From NCBI GenBank assembly GCA_048940645.1, contig JBHLOI010000072.1, forward strand, positions 1 to 15,304: a stretch of DNA of 15,304 nucleotides, in the 5' to 3' direction. The stretch is from Promethearchaeota archaeon. Its GTDB lineage: Archaea; Asgardarchaeota; Lokiarchaeia; Sigyniarchaeales; SOKP01. The position numbers and the translations under genes are program-made. This document shows positions 2,854 through 14,733 of this stretch, piece after piece; position 1 is the first letter of the stretch; every line of letters starts with the position of its first letter. The notes under the pieces are model-generated. The model did no database searches, had not been told where the DNA came from, and worked only from the letters and a program-made list of their open reading frames with translations.

Positions 2854-2924
2854 TCCGAAAGCTCATGCTATGAGTTAGTTTCCTCCCAACTATAATTTTT
2901 TTGGCAGGATCATCCTACTTCGGA
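2854..2924 (-). promoter_or_regulatory. Candidate SECIS-like RNA element in the 3' UTR of vhuD
   Basis: Minus strand reads UAG-G-AUGA-UCCUGCCAA-[AAAAAUUAUAG]-UUGGGAGGA-AA-CUA: AUGA, a 9-position stem (8 pairs, one G-G) and an A-rich loop directly after a gene with two in-frame UGAs. It is flanked by an outer helix (2918-2924 with 2854-2860) and a 5-bp side hairpin (2862-2874). The 3' core reads AA rather than canonical GA in the best register. Confidence 0.6.
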
Positions 2925-3349
2925 TTAATTTTTTGTTTAGGTAGAGGTGGGAGTTCATTGATTTTAGTTGTTATATCTGCTACTGATTGGATGAATTTTT
3001 CCACTTCTGCTGCTGAACAGAAATATTGCTGAATTCTGTTTTCTGAAATCCCCAAACGGTTAAATAACCGTCTCAAGAACTTTACATGCTCATAAGTATT
3101 AAGATTACCACTACCATATTCACATTCTCCTTCTTTTCATGATATAATAGCCACTCCATCAGCACCGTTTAAAAAACACTCCATAATTAAATGAATACCA
3201 ACTCTTCCTGTACATCTAACTCTAATTAAATGAAAATCAGTTGAATAAGTTCTTCTCGTAGTTCCAGTTAAGTCCGCAGCAGAATAACCTCATTTGTCAC
3301 ATCCAAAAGCAATAATTTTTCTAAAATTCTTATTTTCTGTACTAACCAT
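2915..3349 (-). CDS. vhuD: Selenocysteine-containing hydrogenase iron-sulfur subunit MvhD/VhuD (144 aa, 2 Sec)
   Basis: Missed by the ORF track. Translation: MVSTENKNFRKIIAFGCDKUGYSAADLTG...IRVRCTGRV...NGADGVAIISUKEGECEYGSGN...RIQQYFCSAAEVEKF...PK then TAG. TGA at 3290-3292 and 3137-3139 align to Cys in CCNWC and SGCHIGDC of the paralog at 10143. GAGGT Shine-Dalgarno upstream. Confidence 0.93.
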
Positions 3350-3370
3350 ATGAATTTACCTCTATTTTAT

Positions 3371-5368
3371 TTAATCTTCCTCGATTTTAGGTGCATCTTG
3401 AATGGATTTGATTTCGCTACTACTGATTCCTTTAATTTCTTCAATGAATTGTTTGTCTCTATAGTATTTTAGGTCAATCGCTCTTGCGGGACACGATGTA
3501 GAACACACACCACAGCCTTTACATTTCAAATCATCTACAATTGCAATATTGTTTTCACCTACTTTTATTGCTTCATAATAACACAATTTTTCACACCTAT
3601 GGCACCCCATACAAAGTTCTTCTTTCACTTCTGCAATCAGTAATTCTTGATTTATAGTATCGTGGGAAAGTAGAGTAGCAGCCTTACTTGCTGCCGCTAA
3701 AGCTGTTGATACTGAATAAGGGATGTTTTTTGGTCCAGCTGCAGTCCCACATATGTAAATTCCCATACTATTTGTTTCTTGTGGGCTTAAACATCCATGA
3801 ATTTCTGTTAAAAATCCATTTGGACCTTTTCCTAGACCCATTATATCTATAATTTCAATAGTACCTTTTGAAGGTATCATACCTGTAGATAGTACAACTA
3901 AATCAGCATCGTGTTTAATTATATCACCTGTTAATGATGAAAATGCCCTAATTTTAAGTTTTTTCGTTTCAGGGTCTTCTAATATTTCTCCAACCTTTCC
4001 TCGAATCATTCTTATTCCCGTATCTCTTATTCTTCTATAATATTCTTCGTTTCCTTTATCTGTTGTCCTAATATCAATATAAAATAAAACTACATCCATA
4101 TCAGGATACTCTTGTTTTAATAATTGCGCATTTTTAAGAGCGACATTACAACACACTCCAGAGCAATAGGGAAGTTCTTTTACTGATCTTGAACCAACAC
4201 ATTGAATCATTACAATCGTATTTGGAATTTCTCCATTAGAAATTCTATACACATGACCATCAGTTGGACCAATAGGGCTTAACATCCGTTCCAGTTCAAT
4301 TTGAGTGATCACGTCAGGATATAATCCATAGTTATATTCATTAGTTTCGATAATTGGGTATTCATCATAACCTGTCGCAATTATTACAGCTCCCACATTT
4401 ATATCAATATATTGTGGTTCTTGATTAAAATCAACTGCTTCAGCTGGGCAGACACGTTCGCAATTTTTGCAGTCAATGCAAACAGATTTGTCAATTACAG
4501 CGTACTTTGGTACAGCTTGAGGGAATGGAATGTAAATTGCACCCCTATCACCGATCCCTCTATTGAATTCGTCGGGTACTTTTATGGGACATTTGCTTGT
4601 GCATAATCCGCAACCAGTACACCTACTTTCATCAATATAACGAGGATTTTTTCTTATTTTAACTTTATAATTACCAGGAATTCCGCTAAATTCGGTAATA
4701 TCACTATATGTATATAAATTTATATTTGGTTGCTTTGAAGCATTAACCATTATTGGAGCAAGTACTCATATTCCACAATCATCAGTTGGATAAATCCTAT
4801 CTAATTGTGCCATTTTACCACCAATAGTAGGTTCTTTTTCAACTAGATATACATTTATTCCTTGGTTCGCTAAATCTAATGCTGCATTCATTCCAGCAAT
4901 TCCAGCACCAATTACTAAAGCTGCTCGTTCTACGGGAATAATTTTTCGGGGAATATTCTCTAACTCGCGAGAACGGTTTATTCCTGCTATAACTAGTCTT
5001 ATAGCCTTTTCAGTAGCACCCCTCTTATCATCTCCATGTACGAATGAACAATGTTCACGTAAATTAACCATCTGAAAATAGTAAGGGCTTAAACCGGCCT
5101 CAATTAAAACGGCACGATAGGTTGGTTCATGAATTTTTGGAGTACACGCAGCAACAACAATACGATTTAAATCTAACTCTAGAATATCATTTTTGATTAT
5201 TTTCTGTCCAGGATCACTACAAGTAAAGTCATTTACTCTAACTATTGCGACATTTGGGAGATGTTCAACAGCATCTTTCACAGCATCGCAATCTACCGTA
5301 GCTCCTATATTTACTCCTCACCTGCATACATAAACGCCTATTCTAACAATGGTCTGTTTATCAGACAT
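3371..5368 (-). CDS. hdrA: Selenocysteine-containing heterodisulfide reductase subunit A (665 aa, 2 Sec)
   Basis: Joins track ORFs 4766..5281 and 3371..4750 plus an upstream segment in one frame: MSDKQTIVRIGVYVCRUGVNIG (TGA 5318-5320; paralog RIGVLICHCGINIG) and PTDDCGIUVLAPIM (TGA 4766-4768; paralog PTNDCSLCILAPKM). GAGIAG FAD motif, QCVGSR, YCSGVCC and four CxxCxxCxxxC motifs. GGTGA Shine-Dalgarno at 5374-5378. Confidence 0.95.
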
Positions 5369-5753: not shown

Positions 5754-7034
5754 GTGAAGCGTATAACAGAAATCAATGAAAAAGGTAATTCTGAGCAATC
5801 CATAGAGAATTCAGAGTTATATTTAAACAAGATTTACGAGCCGAACTTAAGAAAATTATTGAGTAAATGTTATCAATGTGTTCGTTGTAGTGGTGTATGC
5901 CAACTTAGCAAAGTTCAAAGTTTTATCCCTAGTGTAATCATTCAACGAATATTAGAAGGCTCTGAAGATAAAGTAATCAGTAGTGGTGTATTATGGGATT
6001 GTTTAACATGTAATAGCTGTCTTCAGAATTGTCCCGAAGATATAAATTTTGCTGATATTGTAAGAAATGCAAAATATAAAATGAAAAATTATTATAAACA
6101 AAATCCCGAGGAATTCGTCGCACATAAAGGGGTTTATACTACTATATCAGAAATATTGAGTGAGCCTTATATCCAACCGAACAAAAATCTTGATTGGGTT
6201 CCAAAAGAATGTAAAATTTCAGATAGAGGGGATATTCTGTATTTCGTAGGTTGCATGCCTTATTTTAAATTTGAATTCCAAGAAGTAGATCCAATTCCTA
6301 TAAGCTCACTTAAAATTTTGTGTCAAATTGAAAAACGTCCAATTGTTGTTCTTAAAGATGAGGTTTGTTGCGGACACGACTTGTACTGGGGATTAGGAAA
6401 TTTTGAGGCTTTTATTAAATTAGCAAAGAAAAATTACGACTTATTTGAAAAGTCAGGAGTTTCAACAATTATTACATCTTGCGCAGAAGGTTATAGGACC
6501 TTTAAAGTGGAGTATCCAAAACTATTTGAAGATTTTGATAAAAAATTTGAAGTGAAACACATAATTGAGTATATATATGAAAAACTTAAACAAGGTAAGA
6601 TTGAGTTAAAAGCTCCAGATGAAGGTGACATAAATATTCAGTTTACTTATCACGATCCTTGTCGGTTAAGCAGATTCCTACCAAAATCTAATAATCTTTT
6701 AGAAAAATTAAGGGAAATTTTTAACTTATTGGAGGGATCAGGTTATTCTTTCAAAGAAATGACACACAATAAAGAGAATGCATTATGTTGTGGGGTTAGT
6801 TCATGGATGAATTGTAATACTCGATCGAAAGCTCTTAGATATAGTCGCCTCTTGGAAGCTAAAAAAGCAGGTTCAACTTTAGTTACATCATGTCCAAAAT
6901 GTATAATTCACCTCTCGTGCCTTCAAAAGGATTACGATGATTTATCTTCTATAGAAATTAAAGATTTTTCTGAGCTTATGGTAAATTTAATTCATGTAAT
7001 TGATTTAAAAAATAATGGAGAAGTTAAATCATAA
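5754..7034 (+). CDS. HdrC-HdrB fusion (HdrD/GlpC-like Fe-S oxidoreductase with two CCG domains)
   Basis: CYQCVRCSGVC and CLTCNSCLQNCP clusters, then FVGC, EVCCG, SCAEG, YHDPC, LCCG and SCPKC. Stop overlaps the next start (TAATG). GTG start uncertain. Confidence 0.88.
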   Translation: MKRITEINEKGNSEQSIENSELYLNKIYEPNLRKLLSKCYQCVRCSGVCQLSKVQSFIPSVIIQRILEGSEDKVISSGVLWDCLTCNSCLQNCPEDINFADIVRNAKYKMKNYYKQNPEEFVAHKGVYTTISEILSEPYIQPNKNLDWVPKECKISDRGDILYFVGCMPYFKFEFQEVDPIPISSLKILCQIEKRPIVVLKDEVCCGHDLYWGLGNFEAFIKLAKKNYDLFEKSGVSTIITSCAEGYRTFKVEYPKLFEDFDKKFEVKHIIEYIYEKLKQGKIELKAPDEGDINIQFTYHDPCRLSRFLPKSNNLLEKLREIFNLLEGSGYSFKEMTHNKENALCCGVSSWMNCNTRSKALRYSRLLEAKKAGSTLVTSCPKCIIHLSCLQKDYDDLSSIEIKDFSELMVNLIHVIDLKNNGEVKS

Positions 7035-10000
7035 TGGAAGGATCTGTATTAGTAATTGGGGGAGGCATTGCTGGTATCCAATGTTCTTTAGATTTGACCG
7101 AATTAGGTTATAAAGTTTATTTAGTTGAAAGAACACCCTCAATTGGAGGCCGAATGGCTCAACTTGATAAGACATTCCCTACAAATGATTGCAGTTTATG
7201 TATTCTTGCACCTAAAATGGTCGAAGTTTTTAGAAATCCTAATATTGAATTATTAACTTATCATGAAGTTAAAGAAATTATTGGAGCGACAGGAGATTTT
7301 ACTGCCACAATTCTTAAAAAACCACGCTATATTGATGAAACAAAATGTAAAGGTTGTGGAGATTGTGCTACAAAATGCCCAAAAATTGAAGTTCCAAACT
7401 TATTCGATATGAACTTAGGTAAAAGAAAATCTATTTATATACCGTTTCCTCAAGCAGTCCCTCCTATCTATTTAATTGATCCTAGCTTGTGTTTGAAATT
7501 AACAAAAGGAGTATGTGGAGTTTGTGAAAAAGTATGTGAAGCCGAAGCAATTGATTATGAACAAAAACCTCAAGATATTCAACTCAATATAGGAGCTATT
7601 GTAGTAGCAACTGGTTTTGAGATGCCTGCTGAAAAATTATCTTTAAGATGGGGGTACCAATATGAAAATGTAGTAAGTGCTCTTGAATATGAGAGAATTT
7701 TATGTGCTTCAGGACCTTTCGGGGGACATGTCTTAAGACCAAGTGATCATGAAGAACCTGAGAAAATTGCTTTTATTCAATGTGCTGGTTCAAGGGATCT
7801 ACATGAGGGTGTACCTTATTGTTCAAGTGTATGTTGTACATATACAGCAAAAGAAGCAATCATCACAAAAGAACATTCCGAGAAATCACAATGCTATGTA
7901 TTTAGACATGATATTAGAGCTTATGGTAAAAACTTCTATGAATTCACTCAGCGGGCTCAGCAAGAATATGGAGTAAAATACTACCAAACAAAGATCAGTC
8001 AAATTAGAGAAGACCCTGAAACTAATGATTTAATTATTCATTACGAGGATTTAAAAACTGGAGAATTCAAGAATTTTAAAGCGAATTTAGTAGTATTAGC
8101 ATCACCCTTAGTACCATCAAAAGGTACAAACGAATTAGCAGAGATTTTAGGAATCGAACTTGATCAATATAATTTTTTCAAGGAACGTTCTTATTTTAAT
8201 AAATTACAATCTTCAAAAGATGGTATATTTTTATGCGGTTTTTGTCAAGGTCCAATGGATATACCTGAGACTGTAGCAGATGCGAGTGGTGTAGCATCAC
8301 AAGTTGCAACATTATTAAACTCAGTTAAATTTACCCAGATCAAAGAAAAGGAGTTTGAAGAACCAGAAAAGCAAGTAAAAACGTCTGAAGAGCCGAGAAT
8401 TGGAGTCTTAATTTGTCATTGTGGGATTAATATTGGAAAGTATGTAGATGTTCCAGACGTTGTTGAAGAAATTAAAAAATTACCAAATGTAGTTCACTGT
8501 GAAGCAAATTTATATTCATGTTCTAGTGATTCTCAGGAAAGGATAAAGGAAGTTATTAAAGAAAATGATTTAAATAGGTTTATAGTAGCTTCTTGCACTC
8601 CGAGAACACATGAAACCTTGTTTCAGGTTACTTGTCAGGAGGCAGGATTAAATAAATATCTTTTTGAAATGGTGAATATTCGAGATCAATGTTCTTGGGT
8701 TCATATGACAGAGAAAGAAGCAGCTACCGAAAAATCTATAGACCTTGTAAAAATGGCTGTAGCGAAATCGAGACTCTTAAAACCACAAAGAGAAGAAACC
8801 CTTAATATTATTCCCTCAGCGTTAGTCATTGGTGGTGGGGTTGCAGGAATGACTGCTGCACTAAATATTGCAGAACAAGGATTTGAAACATATCTTGTAG
8901 AAAGAGAGAATAAGTTAGGAGGAATCCTAAATTATCTTAACATCCTTTCTCCAATTCAAGAAAGAGGATCGATTTTTCTAAATGAATTAATTGAAAAAGT
9001 AAAAAAGAATAAAAATATCAAAATTTTCTTAGAATCTAAAATTGAGAATATTAAGGGTTATATAGGAAATTATGATATTGCTGTAGGCAATAAAGAAAAA
9101 GTAATTAACGATTTTAAAGTTGGTACAATAATAGTTGCTACTGGAGGAAAGGAATTAAAACCAACTGGTTATTTCCAATATAATGCTAAAAATCAAAATG
9201 TTATAACGCAACTAGAACTAGAACAAAAATTAAAAGATCAAAATGTTGCATGGTTAAAAAATATAAATCGAATAACTACCATTTTATGTGCGAATTCAAG
9301 ACAAAAAGAAGGGATTACCTATTGTTCAAACGTTTGTTGTGCAACAGCAATTAAGAATATTAATTTACTTAAAGAAATTAAACCTGAACTTGAAATTACG
9401 GTATTATATAGAGATTTGCAAATGGCTAAGAAGCAATTCGAAGATTACTATCGCGAAAGAAGAAAAGATGCAATTTTTTTGAGATATGATTTAACTAATA
9501 TACCAGAAATTACTAGAAAAAAGGGAGCCAAAGAAAATTACCAAATAAAGGTTTTTGACACAAATCTTCAAGAGGAAATAGATTTTCAAACCGATTTAAT
9601 AATATTGTCTACTCCAATGATTCCAGCAGATAATTTAGAAGAATTAGCAAAAATGTTAAAAGTACCAATAGACAAAAACGGTTTTTTTTTGGAAGCGCAT
9701 GTTAAGTTAAGACCATTAGATTTTGCAACTGATGGTATCTTTTTGTGTGGATGCGCCCAATGGCCGAAAAGTATTCAGGATTCAATTTCACAGGCAAATG
9801 GAGCAGCTGGTAGAGCTAGCCGATTTTTAAGCGCAAAACAGATTAAAACTTCTGGTTTAATCTCGGAAGTTAATCCAGATAAATGTATTGGATGTGGAAA
9901 ATGTGTAGAAACTTGTCCTTATAATGCTATTGAACTTTTGGATACTAAAATGGAATTTGAAGATTTAAATTTAATTATAAAGCAATCATATATAAATTCG

Positions 10001-10141
10001 GCATTATGCAAAGGTTGTGGGACATGTGCTGCCAGCTGCCCAGTTGGTGCAATATCTGTAAAGCATTATGATTTTGACCAAATAGGTGTGATGATAGATT
10101 CATATCTGCTAAAGAAAACTAAATCATTAGAGGAATTATAA
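7034..10141 (+). CDS. hdrA: Large tandem heterodisulfide reductase subunit A-like flavoprotein (Cys-only, two FAD modules)
   Basis: GGGIAG and GGGVAG FAD motifs, DKTFPTNDCSLC, QCAGSR, YCSSVCC, internal RIGVLICHCGINI domain, FFLEAHVKLRP and C-terminal 2x[4Fe-4S]. Confidence 0.93.
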   Translation: MEGSVLVIGGGIAGIQCSLDLTELGYKVYLVERTPSIGGRMAQLDKTFPTNDCSLCILAPKMVEVFRNPNIELLTYHEVKEIIGATGDFTATILKKPRYIDETKCKGCGDCATKCPKIEVPNLFDMNLGKRKSIYIPFPQAVPPIYLIDPSLCLKLTKGVCGVCEKVCEAEAIDYEQKPQDIQLNIGAIVVATGFEMPAEKLSLRWGYQYENVVSALEYERILCASGPFGGHVLRPSDHEEPEKIAFIQCAGSRDLHEGVPYCSSVCCTYTAKEAIITKEHSEKSQCYVFRHDIRAYGKNFYEFTQRAQQEYGVKYYQTKISQIREDPETNDLIIHYEDLKTGEFKNFKANLVVLASPLVPSKGTNELAEILGIELDQYNFFKERSYFNKLQSSKDGIFLCGFCQGPMDIPETVADASGVASQVATLLNSVKFTQIKEKEFEEPEKQVKTSEEPRIGVLICHCGINIGKYVDVPDVVEEIKKLPNVVHCEANLYSCSSDSQERIKEVIKENDLNRFIVASCTPRTHETLFQVTCQEAGLNKYLFEMVNIRDQCSWVHMTEKEAATEKSIDLVKMAVAKSRLLKPQREETLNIIPSALVIGGGVAGMTAALNIAEQGFETYLVERENKLGGILNYLNILSPIQERGSIFLNELIEKVKKNKNIKIFLESKIENIKGYIGNYDIAVGNKEKVINDFKVGTIIVATGGKELKPTGYFQYNAKNQNVITQLELEQKLKDQNVAWLKNINRITTILCANSRQKEGITYCSNVCCATAIKNINLLKEIKPELEITVLYRDLQMAKKQFEDYYRERRKDAIFLRYDLTNIPEITRKKGAKENYQIKVFDTNLQEEIDFQTDLIILSTPMIPADNLEELAKMLKVPIDKNGFFLEAHVKLRPLDFATDGIFLCGCAQWPKSIQDSISQANGAAGRASRFLSAKQIKTSGLISEVNPDKCIGCGKCVETCPYNAIELLDTKMEFEDLNLIIKQSYINSALCKGCGTCAASCPVGAISVKHYDFDQIGVMIDSYLLKKTKSLEEL

Positions 10142-10142
10142 A

Positions 10143-10577
10143 ATGACAAAAGCAGTATCAAAAGTTGAGAAGGGAGTTTTTGAGCCCTATATTTTGGTTT
10201 TTTGTTGTAATTGGTGTAGTTATGCTGGAGCTGATTTAGCAGGAGTTTCTCGATTCCAATATCCACCAAATGTCAGGATAATAAGAGTTATGTGTTCTGG
10301 AAGAGTGGATCCTGCTTTTGTCTTAAAAGCTTTGAAAAATCGTGCTGATGGGGTTCTTATTAGTGGATGCCACATTGGTGATTGCCATTACATCTCTGGA
10401 AATGAATATACAAGAGATCGTTTTGAAAGGTTATATAATATAATTATAAAGCAATTAGGTGTTAATGAAAAACGCGTCAAGTTAGAATGGGTAAGTGCTT
10501 CCGAAGGAAAAAGGTTTGCTGAAGTAATCACTGAATTTACAACTGAAATAAAGGAATTGGGCCCTTTACGAAAGTAA
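10143..10577 (+). CDS. mvhD: Hydrogenase iron-sulfur subunit MvhD (Cys form)
   Basis: FCCNWCSYAGADLAG, RVMCSGRVDP, GCHIGDCHY and WVSASEG canonical MvhD motifs. Confidence 0.96.
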   Translation: MTKAVSKVEKGVFEPYILVFCCNWCSYAGADLAGVSRFQYPPNVRIIRVMCSGRVDPAFVLKALKNRADGVLISGCHIGDCHYISGNEYTRDRFERLYNIIIKQLGVNEKRVKLEWVSASEGKRFAEVITEFTTEIKELGPLRK

Positions 10578-10826: not shown

Positions 10827-12119
10827 TTGCTCGACATCGAATTATATCGAAATGATTTGGAAACGATAATTGATTCGGAAGAAAAAAGATTTAAAGACCC
10901 ATCTAATGCGAGAAAAGTTTTAGATTATGATAAAAAATGGAGAGAAGTATTAAAAGAGCTTCAAGAATTAAAAAGACAAAGAAACGAAATCTCAATTCAG
11001 ATTGGTCAATTTAAGAAATCCGGAGAAATTGATAAATTTGAAGGAGCTAAATTAAACTCAATAAAAATTAAGGAAAGAATAGATGAGTTAGAAAAAAATA
11101 AAGTGGAATTTTTAGAACAAAGAGAAAAGTTTCGATATATTGTTGGAAATATTTTGCATCAGTCAGTTCCAATTGGAGAAACTGAAGAAAATAATGAAAT
11201 TGTAAGAGTAGTAGGAGATATTGCTAAGTTTAAGTTTAACCCATTATCTCATGTTGATTTAATCTCCAAAATTGATGGAGCAGATACAAAGAAGGCATCT
11301 GAAGTAGCTGGTTCGAGATTTTATTACTTAAAGGGTGATATTGTATCCTTAAATTTCGCATTACTGAGATTTGCTTTAGACAAATTAATTTCTAAGGGTT
11401 ATACTCCCATGTGGCCCCCATTTTTTATTAAATATGATGTAATTAAAGCAGCTGCGGAATTGGCAGATTTCGAAGAACAACTGTATAAAATTCAGGATGA
11501 AGATCTCTATATGATTGCCACAGCAGAACAAACTTTAGCAGCTTATCATTTTAACGAAATAATCGAGCCAGAGAATTTACCAATTAAGTACGTTGGAATT
11601 TCTACATGTTTTAGACGAGAAGCAGGATCTCACGGTAAAGATACTTTAGGAATATTTAGAGTTCATCAGTTTGAAAAAGTAGAACAGTATATATTTTGTA
11701 AACCTGATAATTCTTGGATATTTCATGAGGAATTATTAGCTAACACGGAAGAAATCTTTAAAGAATTAGAAATTCCTTATAGGATTGTTAATATAGCTTC
11801 AGGAGAGTTGAATGATAATGCTGCTAAGAAATACGATCTTGAAGGATGGTTTCCAAGTTCGCAGGAATATAGAGAATTAGTTTCTTGCAGCAATTGTCTT
11901 GATTATCAAGCGAGGAAATTAAAAATTAGAATGGGAAAAGTTGGAACTCAAGAAAAAAAGCAGATTGTACACACATTAAATTCCACAGCAATAGCCACGG
12001 AACGTACAATTTGCTGTTTATTAGAAAATTATCAAAATGAAGATCATTCTGTAAGAATTCCCAGAGTTTTACAGAAATATATGAATAATAAAAAATTAAT
12101 TGAATCTAGAAAAAAATAG
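10827..12119 (+). CDS. serS: Serine--tRNA ligase (canonical type)
   Basis: MLDI start, N-terminal coiled coil, IATAEQ, CFRREAGSHGKDTLGIFRVHQFEKVE (motif 2), ELVSCSNCLDYQAR and HTLNSTAIATER (motif 3). TTG start preceded by GAGG. Confidence 0.97.
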   Translation: MLDIELYRNDLETIIDSEEKRFKDPSNARKVLDYDKKWREVLKELQELKRQRNEISIQIGQFKKSGEIDKFEGAKLNSIKIKERIDELEKNKVEFLEQREKFRYIVGNILHQSVPIGETEENNEIVRVVGDIAKFKFNPLSHVDLISKIDGADTKKASEVAGSRFYYLKGDIVSLNFALLRFALDKLISKGYTPMWPPFFIKYDVIKAAAELADFEEQLYKIQDEDLYMIATAEQTLAAYHFNEIIEPENLPIKYVGISTCFRREAGSHGKDTLGIFRVHQFEKVEQYIFCKPDNSWIFHEELLANTEEIFKELEIPYRIVNIASGELNDNAAKKYDLEGWFPSSQEYRELVSCSNCLDYQARKLKIRMGKVGTQEKKQIVHTLNSTAIATERTICCLLENYQNEDHSVRIPRVLQKYMNNKKLIESRKK

Positions 12120-12126
12120 ATATAAA

Positions 12127-13359
12127 ATGATTGAAGTAATATTAGAAGAATTTGAAGATTTTTATAAGAGTCGATTAGACTCTCGGTATGTAAAAGTAAA
12201 AAAGGCAGTTCAGAAACTTATATCAGAAATAAGAGATGGTTTAATAGAGATCAAAGTTTGTATGGATCATTTTTTAGAAGCGGGAGAGGGAAAAATAGAA
12301 GAAAAAGCTTTAAAATCTTTACATTTTTTCTCTGATCGCATCAGGAAAGAAATTGATGAGATAGAAATTCCAGAAGAAGAATTAAACTATGATAATATCA
12401 TGAGTTTATTAAATTCAATTAAAAAGTTATTCACTAATATAAATGAAATCGCAAGAAAAGCATTACCAAAGTTTCAAAAAGAAGTACAACCTGAAATAAA
12501 GGAACTTAATTATATCACACGTAAAATTCAAAAAAAGCAAGCAGTATTAGATCAATTTTTAAGAAAAAAATATGAGGATCTTAGAGATGCTGAATATTTG
12601 CTTAAAAAATTACCGAAACTTTTTAGTTTACGAGAAAATATTGAACATGCAAAAAAAGATTTAGAAGAATTTGAAGAACAATTAGAAGAGCATAGAAACC
12701 ATCAGGAAGAATTAAATAATAAATTAATGGAGCTAGAAAAAAATACATTATTTTCAGATTTAGAAAAAAAAAGAGAGAAACGATTTAAATTAAGAATGAA
12801 AATCAATGATCAATTAGGTTTTAAAAAAGCATTAAAAAAGTTGAAACATGAATTGGAAAAAGAAACATTTCATATATCAAATCTTAATATGAATTTCTTA
12901 AAAAACTTCCTTAAAGATCCAATAAAAACTCTTCGCAATGAAAGACAAGATCTACCAAATTTTTCAAACTTATTAGTCCAATTACGCCATATTTTAGAAG
13001 AGAATAAGCTAGATCTAAAGACTGATACAAAGGAAAAAACAATTGAAAATATTAATTCGATTTTCGAAGAAAAAAGCATTTTTAACTTTATCGAAGAATT
13101 AAATGAATTAAAGCAAGAAACTAAGTTATTAGAAGAAAAAGTAAAAGAAGCGGGATTATCTGAAGAATTAGAAGATGTTAAAAATCAAATTTCAACAAAT
13201 TCTGTGAGATTAGAGCATGTTCAAAATGATCTAGATAGAAAGAATAAGGATTATATGAGATATTTGGCTGCATTAAAGAATGAAAGAGAAGATTTTCAGA
13301 ATGCAGTAGAACGTGTATTAAATGAAGATATTAAGATAAATATTACCTTCTCTTTTTAA
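12127..13359 (+). CDS. Uncharacterised alpha-helical/coiled-coil protein
   Basis: About 410 aa, very E/K/L rich with heptad stretches and no Walker motif. ATG 12127 preferred over the serS-overlapping TTG 12100. Confidence 0.8.
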   Translation: MIEVILEEFEDFYKSRLDSRYVKVKKAVQKLISEIRDGLIEIKVCMDHFLEAGEGKIEEKALKSLHFFSDRIRKEIDEIEIPEEELNYDNIMSLLNSIKKLFTNINEIARKALPKFQKEVQPEIKELNYITRKIQKKQAVLDQFLRKKYEDLRDAEYLLKKLPKLFSLRENIEHAKKDLEEFEEQLEEHRNHQEELNNKLMELEKNTLFSDLEKKREKRFKLRMKINDQLGFKKALKKLKHELEKETFHISNLNMNFLKNFLKDPIKTLRNERQDLPNFSNLLVQLRHILEENKLDLKTDTKEKTIENINSIFEEKSIFNFIEELNELKQETKLLEEKVKEAGLSEELEDVKNQISTNSVRLEHVQNDLDRKNKDYMRYLAALKNEREDFQNAVERVLNEDIKINITFSF

Positions 13360-13363
13360 GAAG

Positions 13364-14095
13364 CTATAATTTTAACTCCCTCAATTCAAAATCTCTATTA
13401 TCTCTTATATTTCTTTTAAGTAAAGATATCTTTAAATTTTGTTTTAAGAATTTGTAAGTTTCTGTGTTTGTTAAATTAAGGATTTTTAAATATTCATATG
13501 CTAAAACTAAATCTTGTTTAATATCGATATCAAAACCTGCACGAAAAGAATCATAAACTGCTATTTTTAAATTTAAATTATTTGCTCTATTTAATAGAGC
13601 CAGAAGTGAAGGAGTGTCTGGTTCTGAAAAGAAAGTGGGTATTATGTCAGGCGGGTTCCTCCCAAGAACTGAAATTCCTGCAGAATGTATAGCAGGACAT
13701 ACAACTAATTGATGATCTTTTATAATGGAATGAAGTTCATAAAAGTTATTTATTGAAATCAAAATTGTGTCTAAAAAGATAAATGTAGTTTCTTTAGCTT
13801 TGAACTTTGAAATAGCAAGCTCGTTGAGATCTCTGATTACAGCATCAAAATTTTTTCTAGGGGCAGTCAATTCTTCTTTAATACCTCTTAATCCATATTC
13901 ATTCGCGAGTTCTAATATTTCTGCACTGTTGCAATATACAATTTTTTGATCAAATACAGAAACCATTTCTAGTTTTTTGGCTAAATCTTTAAACATAGCA
14001 AGGGTTAAATCTTTAAGTTGCTCTTTTGAAAAGCAATCTCTAAGACGAGATTTTGTTCGTGATAATGGAGCTATAGGGATTAATAAAAAACTCAT
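13364..14095 (-). CDS. cofC: CofC-like 2-phospho-L-lactate/PEP guanylyltransferase (F420 biosynthesis)
   Basis: N-terminal LIPIxxLxxTKSRL...LxLAMFxD and C-terminal GFDIDxxxDL match the CofC/FbiD pattern; central motifs are divergent. Confidence 0.75.
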   Translation of the reverse strand: MSFLLIPIAPLSRTKSRLRDCFSKEQLKDLTLAMFKDLAKKLEMVSVFDQKIVYCNSAEILELANEYGLRGIKEELTAPRKNFDAVIRDLNELAISKFKAKETTFIFLDTILISINNFYELHSIIKDHQLVVCPAIHSAGISVLGRNPPDIIPTFFSEPDTPSLLALLNRANNLNLKIAVYDSFRAGFDIDIKQDLVLAYEYLKILNLTNTETYKFLKQNLKISLLKRNIRDNRDFELRELKL

Positions 14096-14166: not shown

Positions 14167-14733
14167 TTATTTTAAATTATTCAAAATTTGAATTGATAGC
14201 TTTTTAAAAGCCATATCAACATTTTGGTTTAATTTTGCAGAAGTTTCATAATATTCAACTCCTAATTCATTAGCTTTTTTTTCAGCTATATTTTTAGCTA
14301 CCTCTCTTTTTAAATCTGTCTTATTGCCAACAAGGATATATGGTACTTCTCCACTTAGTTCTTTTAATTTAGAGACCCAAAAATCGAGATCCTTAAATGT
14401 ATCATAAGAACTTAAACTAAAAACGACCATAGCTCCAACTGCTTGAACAAAATAATATTCATTTGCGAAAAGCTTATCTTGTTGGCCTCCTACATCCCAA
14501 AAATATAATTTAAACCCTTTATCTTTAATATCTTTCTTTAATTCAGGATTTTTTATATTAACTTTATCAATAATCCCTCTGAGATCAATTTCTTTTATCA
14601 AAAAATTTGCTCCTATAGTTTGATGGTATTCTTCACTAAATTTATTGTCTACATACCGAGCTAGGAGACTAGTTTTCCCAACATTAGGAGAGCCAACCAT
14701 CAATGCCTTTCCTCGATAGCTTATTCCATTCAC
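14167..14733 (-). CDS. Rab-like Ras-superfamily small GTPase (eukaryotic signature protein)
   Basis: G1 GSPNVGKTS, G2 TIG, G3 WDVGGQ, G4 GNKTD, G5 ETSAK; no C-terminal Cys prenylation motif. Confidence 0.93.
   Translation of the reverse strand: MNGISYRGKALMVGSPNVGKTSLLARYVDNKFSEEYHQTIGANFLIKEIDLRGIIDKVNIKNPELKKDIKDKGFKLYFWDVGGQQDKLFANEYYFVQAVGAMVVFSLSSYDTFKDLDFWVSKLKELSGEVPYILVGNKTDLKREVAKNIAEKKANELGVEYYETSAKLNQNVDMAFKKLSIQILNNLK

Follow-up and report, generated by a model that had tools for sequence, protein, structure and literature searches.

A tandem gene pair, hdrA-vhuD, on the minus strand of contig JBHLOI010000072.1 is very probably a genuine Lokiarchaeia selenoprotein gene pair, in which four in-frame UGA codons specify selenocysteine (Sec, U in sequence motifs) by means of one shared Sec insertion sequence (SECIS) element of the lokiSECIS type. 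The stretch of DNA analysed, referred to as the window, is 15,304 nucleotides (nt) long and represents the entire 15.3-kb contig; it belongs to a 3.83-Mb metagenome-assembled genome (MAG) of a member of the Promethearchaeota (Lokiarchaeia) with a GC content of 29.8%. The elements of the gene pair are arranged on the minus strand as follows, with both open reading frames (ORFs) obtained by reading through TGA.

Positions 5378-5374, minus strand: Shine-Dalgarno-like GGUGA, 5 nt upstream of the hdrA ATG.
Positions 5368-3371, minus strand: hdrA, 665 codons, type I HdrA, TAA stop.
Positions 5320-5318, minus strand: UGA, predicted Sec17 of HdrA, motif C-R-U-G in the N-terminal Fe-S domain.
Positions 4768-4766, minus strand: UGA, predicted Sec201 of HdrA, motif D-D-C-G-I-U (CxxU), the canonical HdrA Sec position.
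Positions 3370-3350, minus strand: hdrA-vhuD spacer of 21 nt, with a Shine-Dalgarno-like GAGGT at 3362-3358.
Positions 3349-2915, minus strand: vhuD/mvhD (FlpD family), 144 codons, TAG stop.
Positions 3292-3290, minus strand: UGA, predicted Sec20 of VhuD, motif C-D-K-U (CxxU).
Positions 3139-3137, minus strand: UGA, predicted Sec71 of VhuD, motif I-S-U-K.
Positions 2913-2879, minus strand: lokiSECIS, type I eukaryote-like, starting 1 nt past the vhuD stop.

The first-pass annotation of this DNA, made from the sequence, had proposed that both genes remain open in single frames once TGA is decoded, had located the four TGA codons and had predicted that standard annotation would split hdrA. The raw sequence bears out all three statements. 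Decoding of TGA yields two clean ORFs of 665 and 144 amino acids, and the four codons are exactly where they had been placed. Translation of positions 2915-5368 on the minus strand with genetic code table 11 breaks hdrA into pieces of 171 and 459 residues and leaves a vhuD product of 53 residues. The 171-residue piece has an entry of its own in public databases, named 'heterodisulfide reductase subunit A' or 'FAD-dependent oxidoreductase'; no database record was found for the 53-residue vhuD remnant.

HdrA comprises an N-terminal Fe-S domain, a flavin adenine dinucleotide (FAD)/thioredoxin-reductase-like domain and two ferredoxin domains, one inserted and one at the C terminus. Alignment of residues 9-652 with the NCBIfam HdrA2 model NF040770 yields a score of 808 bits, which is lower than the 1100-bit cut-off because the model includes a fused MvhD domain that is encoded here by a separate gene. 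Comparison with the PDB identified 9sfi_A of M. maripaludis (E = 1.5e-220 over residues 9-650) and 5odc_A (E = 1.4e-207). VhuD scores 128 bits with Pfam PF02662 and 129 bits with the NCBIfam VhuD model, and matches the VhuD/MvhD chains 9sfi_K, 9sw2_D and 5odc_D, with E = 1e-26 versus the Methanococcus-type complex.

Three of the four TGA positions align with Sec positions of the solved Methanococcus Hdr-Vhu complex. U201 is opposite the residue that the depositors of 9sfi_A entered as X (DDCGIU versus DDCAMX), which is named Sec197 in M. maripaludis HdrA (PMC13518236), and U20 and U71 of VhuD are opposite the first and second X of 9sfi_K, respectively. The fourth, U17, aligns with a Cys of every solved HdrA and of the window paralog. 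BLASTP alignment with the paralogs encoded elsewhere in the window also positions each U opposite a Cys, as CRU/CHC and CGIU/CSLC in HdrA and as CDKU/CNWC and SU/GC in VhuD, a pattern that is far beyond chance. The earlier claim that each TGA faces a conserved Cys of the window paralogs thus holds for all four codons, and the accompanying statement that HdrA and VhuD are selenoprotein families of Methanococcales and Lokiarchaeota is correct according to the literature and the solved structures.

Conservation was assessed by alignment-based column counts over 100 related loci from Promethearchaeota MAGs, which were assembled from two partly overlapping sets. A read-through search of 40 related genomes recovered orthologues of 71-95% identity, with 2-3 in-frame TGAs each in an otherwise open frame of ~665 codons; the relatives are Promethearchaeota/Promethearchaeia (Lokiarchaeia) MAGs from many projects. 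In the loci counted, the frames remain open at 72-96% protein identity. The four columns are occupied as follows.

HdrA column 17: TGA in 99/100 loci; the remaining one has a non-Cys residue (Gly).
HdrA column 201: TGA in 100/100 loci; no other residue.
VhuD column 20: TGA in 74/74 loci; no other residue.
VhuD column 71: TGA in 69/74 loci; Cys in 5.

The expectation that relatives would carry conserved TGA or Cys in these columns is therefore borne out, with TGA in nearly all loci and the five Cys codons confined to VhuD 71, and the flanking Cys columns are invariant among the loci counted. The possibility that the TGAs are assembly or sequencing errors, or that the genes are decaying pseudogenes, draws on the fact that the standard code breaks both genes and that the source is a MAG, but its probability is negligible and conservation effectively refutes it, as the four columns carry TGA in some 70-100 loci that come from numerous independent MAGs and studies, in frames that are otherwise open and only at conserved Cys columns, and as the interchange of Sec and Cys at fixed columns is a classical selenoprotein signature that excludes such defects. 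Contigs from other studies (Logan contigs) are identical across 5318-5320, TGA included, although the source of the best-matching Logan contig may be the same sample as that of this MAG. At HdrA column 303, Cys is present in 95 loci and TGA in 5 (L026, L028-L031). This column corresponds to a Cys of the inserted ferredoxin domain, in the C-I-D-C-K-N-C region, and is thus Sec/Cys polymorphic at an Fe-S motif.

The Sec machinery that the first-pass annotation had suggested searching for was found in the same genome. The tRNA-Sec scores 62 bits, above the cut-off, and is classified by ARAGORN as SeC with anticodon UCA. The SepSecS gene (477 bits) is located directly downstream of it, and a SelB/EFSec-like gene with a 489-residue frame is located 4 kb away on the same contig (236 bits, versus a cut-off of 242 bits). 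As expected, the match of the latter is confined to the EF-Tu-like part of the bacterial model. A PSTK-like gene yields 168 bits in a full-length alignment, below the equivalog cut-off, and selD yields 187 bits and contains one in-frame TGA. The PSTK model is built on methanogen sequences and the EFSec model on bacterial ones, and both matches extend over the whole of the expected domains. A tRNA scan of the window itself detected none. Reassignment of UGA throughout the genome (for example to Trp, Gly or Cys), with no Sec involved, would also explain why read-through yields intact proteins, yet it deserves hardly any credence: TGA terminates 203 of 1600 long ORFs in the genome (~13%), and within the window it occurs in frame in hdrA and vhuD only, at Cys columns only, which rules out a global reassignment, and the genome encodes tRNA-Sec(UCA), SepSecS, PSTK, SelD and EFSec, with a SECIS after the genes.

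The lokiSECIS behind vhuD consists, in order, of AUGA (2913-2910), UCCUGCCAA, the loop AAAAAUUAUAG, UUGGGAGGA and an AA 3' core. The stem has nine positions, eight of which form pairs around a central G.G, and the 11-nt loop starts with A5 and ends with AG; the loop columns are invariant or nearly so in relatives. According to the text of Mariotti et al. 2016 (PMC4989117), a lokiSECIS has AUGA, then a stem of 9 bp, a loop of 11 nt that opens with five A's and closes with AG, and either GA or AA behind the stem; the window element agrees with each of these features. A SECIS motif is found at the same place in 94 of the 100 related loci. Over 55 distinct relatives, seven of the nine stem pairs exhibit compensatory changes and 94% of the cells pair, compared with 27-58% in slid controls, and RNAalifold predicts the stem independently. 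A strict pattern scan yielded nine sites in the genome, compared with 0.5 on average in ten simulated genomes of the same dinucleotide composition. The other genome sites are located directly behind TGA-containing genes, namely hdrA, vhuD, a vhuU and a Prx-like gene, and behind small ORFs with in-frame TGA; at least six of the nine directly follow TGA-containing hdrA, vhuD, vhuU or prx-like ORFs. An Rfam scan of the window returned no SECIS match at E<=10 and no other credible RNA family, which is expected because standard SECIS tools miss lokiSECIS, as stated in the text of Mariotti et al. 2016 (PMC4989117).

Several observations weigh against Sec decoding of the pair through this element. 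The upper stem contains the central G.G mismatch, which also occurs in relatives. The 3' core is AA rather than GA; in the 94 related loci AA occurs 77 times and GA 17 times, and the text of the Asgard selenoproteome survey (PMC11227280) reports AUGA_AA as a core variant of hdrA/frhD in Lokiarchaeia. In addition, the MAG is 90% complete with 3.7% contamination, the PSTK and EFSec matches are under the NCBIfam curated cut-offs, and both Sec incorporation and the polycistronic transcript are deduced indirectly.

The SECIS is 226, 379, 1855 and 2407 nt away from the four UGAs. The 21-nt hdrA-vhuD spacer is too short for a separate SECIS. A bacterial-type hairpin after the UGAs is not supported, as folding of the 60 nt that follow each codon yields z = -0.4, -1.1, +0.4 and -0.8 relative to shuffles. 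Both the pattern scan and the covariance model detect a single SECIS on the contig. This combination makes it most likely, as far as the sequence arrangement can tell, that one SECIS serves all four UGAs. The distance of 2.4 kb between Sec17 and the SECIS, across a cistron boundary, is unusual, and some related hdrA paralogs possess their own SECIS directly after hdrA; both facts would suit a model in which each UGA, or at least those of hdrA, is recoded by a nearby signal of its own, either a bacterial-type hairpin or a SECIS hidden in the coding region. However, the shuffle comparison, the short spacer and the single SECIS on the contig all argue for the shared element, and the published analysis, according to its text, concluded that all Loki hdrA-vhuD pairs share one SECIS (PMC4989117). 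Local recoding is thus very improbable.

One hdrA paralog with its own SECIS is present in the same genome (contig C77, 3011-5093). It encodes 678 residues including U17 and U201, and its SECIS is located 11 nt past the stop. This type is kept in ~25 related loci (for example L082-L105), with no vhuD between hdrA and the SECIS, so that a Sec-containing hdrA is not always in tandem with vhuD.

In the mechanism that we propose, hdrA and vhuD would be translated from one mRNA, which may include the downstream frhB-like gene. The four in-frame UGAs would be decoded by Sec-tRNA(UCA), delivered by an EFSec of the archaeal/eukaryotic type, and the single lokiSECIS with its AUGA_AA core, 1 nt past the vhuD stop, would direct recoding 0.2-2.4 kb upstream. 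The predicted products are the flavin-based electron-bifurcating core HdrA and the [2Fe-2S] docking subunit VhuD, in line with the description of HdrA as the flavin-based electron-bifurcating subunit and of VhuD/MvhD as the [2Fe-2S] adaptor that feeds HdrA (PMC13518236). The putative chemical role of each Sec can be outlined from its position. Sec201 would be the CxxU residue beside the FAD and the N-terminal cluster, Sec17 would be placed in the N-terminal Fe-S domain, and Sec20 and Sec71 would be placed with the conserved Cys residues at the cluster site of VhuD. By alignment, Sec201 and Cys198 correspond to the Cys-Sec197 pair of M. maripaludis, where the density would fit a selenenylsulfide located between FAD and the N-terminal cluster and a selenenylsulfide relay near the FAD is proposed (PMC13518236). 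For the crystallised HdrABC-MvhAGD, secondary literature describes Cys197 of one HdrA as donating a ligand to the N-terminal [4Fe-4S] cluster of its partner.

The HdrA N-terminal domain has four conserved Cys columns (15, 17, 50 and 75), one of which is occupied by Sec17. A paralogous hdrA in the same genome (contig C107, L126:552-2492, minus strand) has four predicted Sec, U16, U49, U74 and U199, three of them at N-terminal-domain Cys columns and one at the canonical position. This gene overlaps a two-Sec vhuD in another frame, and the SECIS overlaps the end of that vhuD. Judging by the place of Sec17 in the N-terminal Cys set together with the Sec columns of this paralog, the Sec residues of Loki HdrAs seem to gather around a single cluster/FAD environment.

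A different role for the UGAs is suggested by the neighbouring genes. Paralogs of the Cys type, an HdrA and an MvhD, are encoded on the opposite strand at a distance of 1.7 kb, the genome contains several hdrA copies free of TGA, and Methanococcus, according to the literature, exchanges Vhu for Vhc under selenium limitation. The UGAs might therefore act mainly as conditional stops in a selenium-responsive switch, with the Cys paralogs replacing the pair when selenium is absent. However, the neighbouring paralog is a type II fused HdrA and not an isofunctional Cys copy. Such a switch is unlikely to be the main function of the UGAs; it is compatible with their decoding as Sec through the shared SECIS and provides no replacement for it. 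The paralogs are part of a divergent operon at 5754-10577 on the plus strand.

Positions 5754-7034, plus strand: HdrD-like protein, with a ferredoxin and two CCG domains.
Positions 7034-10141, plus strand: type II 'double' HdrA, 1035 residues, Cys at the aligned columns.
Positions 10143-10577, plus strand: Cys-type MvhD, Cys at the aligned columns.

The first half of the double HdrA has the CxxC (Cys197-type) motif without the N-terminal Fe-S domain, the complementary pattern described for fused HdrAs of anaerobic methanotrophic archaea (ANME).

Gene pairs of this kind have been reported previously. The text of Mariotti et al. 2016 (PMC4989117) describes Lokiarchaeota HdrA-VhuD tandem selenoprotein genes with one shared lokiSECIS per pair, and the text of the Asgard selenoproteome survey (ISME J 2024, PMC11227280) reports 1439 selenoproteins and hdrA-frhD clusters. 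Compared with the pairs as published there, the window pair has the same hdrA to vhuD order on one strand with a very short spacer, the same multi-Sec HdrA, always including the canonical position at ~200, and the same two-Sec VhuD. The hdrA stop is UAA or UAG in the published model and UAA here. A single SECIS close behind vhuD, with the same stem and loop definition and the documented AA core, is common to both. As far as these descriptions extend there is no essential difference, and the families, tandem order, multi-Sec HdrA, two-Sec VhuD, shared SECIS with the AA-core variant and hdrA stop are already known (PMC4989117, PMC11227280); the closing stem and accessory hairpin described below and the frhB-like neighbour were not found in the text of the two papers.

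The M. maripaludis Hdr-Vhu complex (9sfi/9t1s; PMC13518236) and the Methanothermococcus HdrABC-MvhAGD complex (5odc) contain the same families in the same domain order. The former has the canonical HdrA Sec (197, equivalent to 201 here) and both VhuD Sec residues in common with the window pair. The methanogen HdrA contains a single Sec, whereas the window HdrA has a second one, U17, in the N-terminal Fe-S domain. The methanogen SECIS is of the euryarchaeal type. The window does not come from a methanogen, and the neighbour of the gene pair is frhB-like rather than vhuAGU or hdrBC. Compared with the eukaryotic type I SECIS, the lokiSECIS has a shorter upper stem (9 bp), starts 1 nt past a stop in a probably polycistronic context and bears an accessory hairpin within its internal loop, on the 3' side. 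According to the text of the 2016 paper (PMC4989117), SBP2 was not found in Loki.

The lokiSECIS is embedded in a larger predicted structure.

Positions 2928-2849, minus strand: extended SECIS, in which a closing lower stem encloses the SECIS and an accessory hairpin.

In the core of the closing stem, UCCGAA (2924-2919) pairs with UUCGGA (2860-2855). Its 5' arm overlaps the last vhuD codons and is sometimes located in the 3' untranslated region in relatives. The closing stem is 91% paired and has two covarying pairs. The accessory hairpin, CUCAU-AGC-AUGAG (2874-2862), covaries strongly, with CUC/GAG, CCC/GGG and UUU/AAA types. Constrained folds of all nine genome SECIS adopt the same three-helix layout with entirely different closing-stem sequences, and the accessory loop contains GC in all nine. 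A covariance model built from the hdrA-vhuD relatives only recovers the SECIS sites behind six other selenoprotein genes of the genome. The three-helix architecture is common to the nine genome SECIS and the 55 hdrA-vhuD relatives.

The three helices may be a closing lower stem that differs from gene to gene, an upper stem together with the kink-turn core, and a 3'-side accessory hairpin with a GC-containing loop. The text of the 2016 paper describes the SECIS core only (PMC4989117), and that of the 2024 survey discusses lower stems and internal loops and leaves the hairpin unmentioned (PMC11227280); relative to these descriptions, the closing stem and accessory hairpin are a possible small addition to the published SECIS. 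The extended architecture may be the feature that allows a single element to act on UGAs located 0.2-2.4 kb upstream across two cistrons. We tentatively suggest, while regarding the joint proposal as somewhat less than evenly probable, that the Loki-type SECIS is a three-helix unit that enables cross-cistron recoding and that Sec17 and the partner Sec201 meet at one inter-subunit N-terminal [4Fe-4S] site. If this view of Sec17 and Sec201 is true, Loki HdrAs with 2-4 Sec may progressively selenate one cluster environment.

The gene pair is a well-supported instance of the Asgard Sec system, which is regarded as a link between the recoding machineries of archaea and eukaryotes. Its practical relevance arises from public gene calls that fragment hdrA at the TGAs and from the 53-residue vhuD left by the standard code, as a result of which Loki-type electron-bifurcating modules are under-counted in metabolic reconstructions. 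The gene pair alone opens no new question. The extended SECIS architecture could guide reporter experiments, and the clustering of Sec around one Fe-S/FAD site could guide structural work.

The two-gene unit put forward by the first-pass annotation stands; it is refined here by the one shared lokiSECIS after vhuD and, probably, by a third, Sec-free gene.

Positions 2819-1326, minus strand: frhB/fdhB-like gene, two [4Fe-4S] motifs, FrhB_FdhB N and C domains (Pfam, NCBIfam), no TGA.

In 71 of the ~74 vhuD-bearing loci such a gene follows on the same strand, and it is probably the third gene of the unit. The TTG start of its longest ORF (2852-2850) falls inside the region of the 3' arm of the SECIS closing stem. 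Initiation at the ATG at 2819 is more plausible, and automated calls may over-extend the gene into the SECIS.

Further genes of the window are as follows.

Positions 10827-12119, plus strand: serS (Pfam/NCBIfam).
Positions 12100-13359, plus strand: ORF of 419 codons with no Pfam or NCBIfam match, overlapping the end of serS by 20 nt.
Positions 13364-14095, minus strand: cofC, F420 biosynthesis (Pfam/NCBIfam).
Positions 14167-14733, minus strand: Ras-family small GTPase (Pfam/NCBIfam).

Seryl-tRNA synthetase, the serS product, also charges tRNA-Sec with serine, and Ras-family small GTPases are typical of Asgard archaea. The conserved frhB-like gene and the presence of cofC in the window suggest, from gene content, a possible F420-linked electron input.

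Outside the window, SECIS matches in the same genome also accompany short ORFs. On contig C57 (L122:352-702, plus strand), a 116-codon ORF with no Pfam match contains two adjacent in-frame TGAs (G-C-U-U-E-K) and is followed, 8 nt past its stop, by a lokiSECIS with a perfect 9-bp stem, making it a candidate selenoprotein of unknown family. Further matches are located behind very small ORFs on contigs C120 (L127:536-757, plus strand), C121 (12399-12483, minus strand) and C11 (63388-63475, plus strand). The C120 ORF has 64 codons, an N-terminal membrane helix and the motif G-G-G-U-G-C, and its stop codon is the UGA of the SECIS AUGA.

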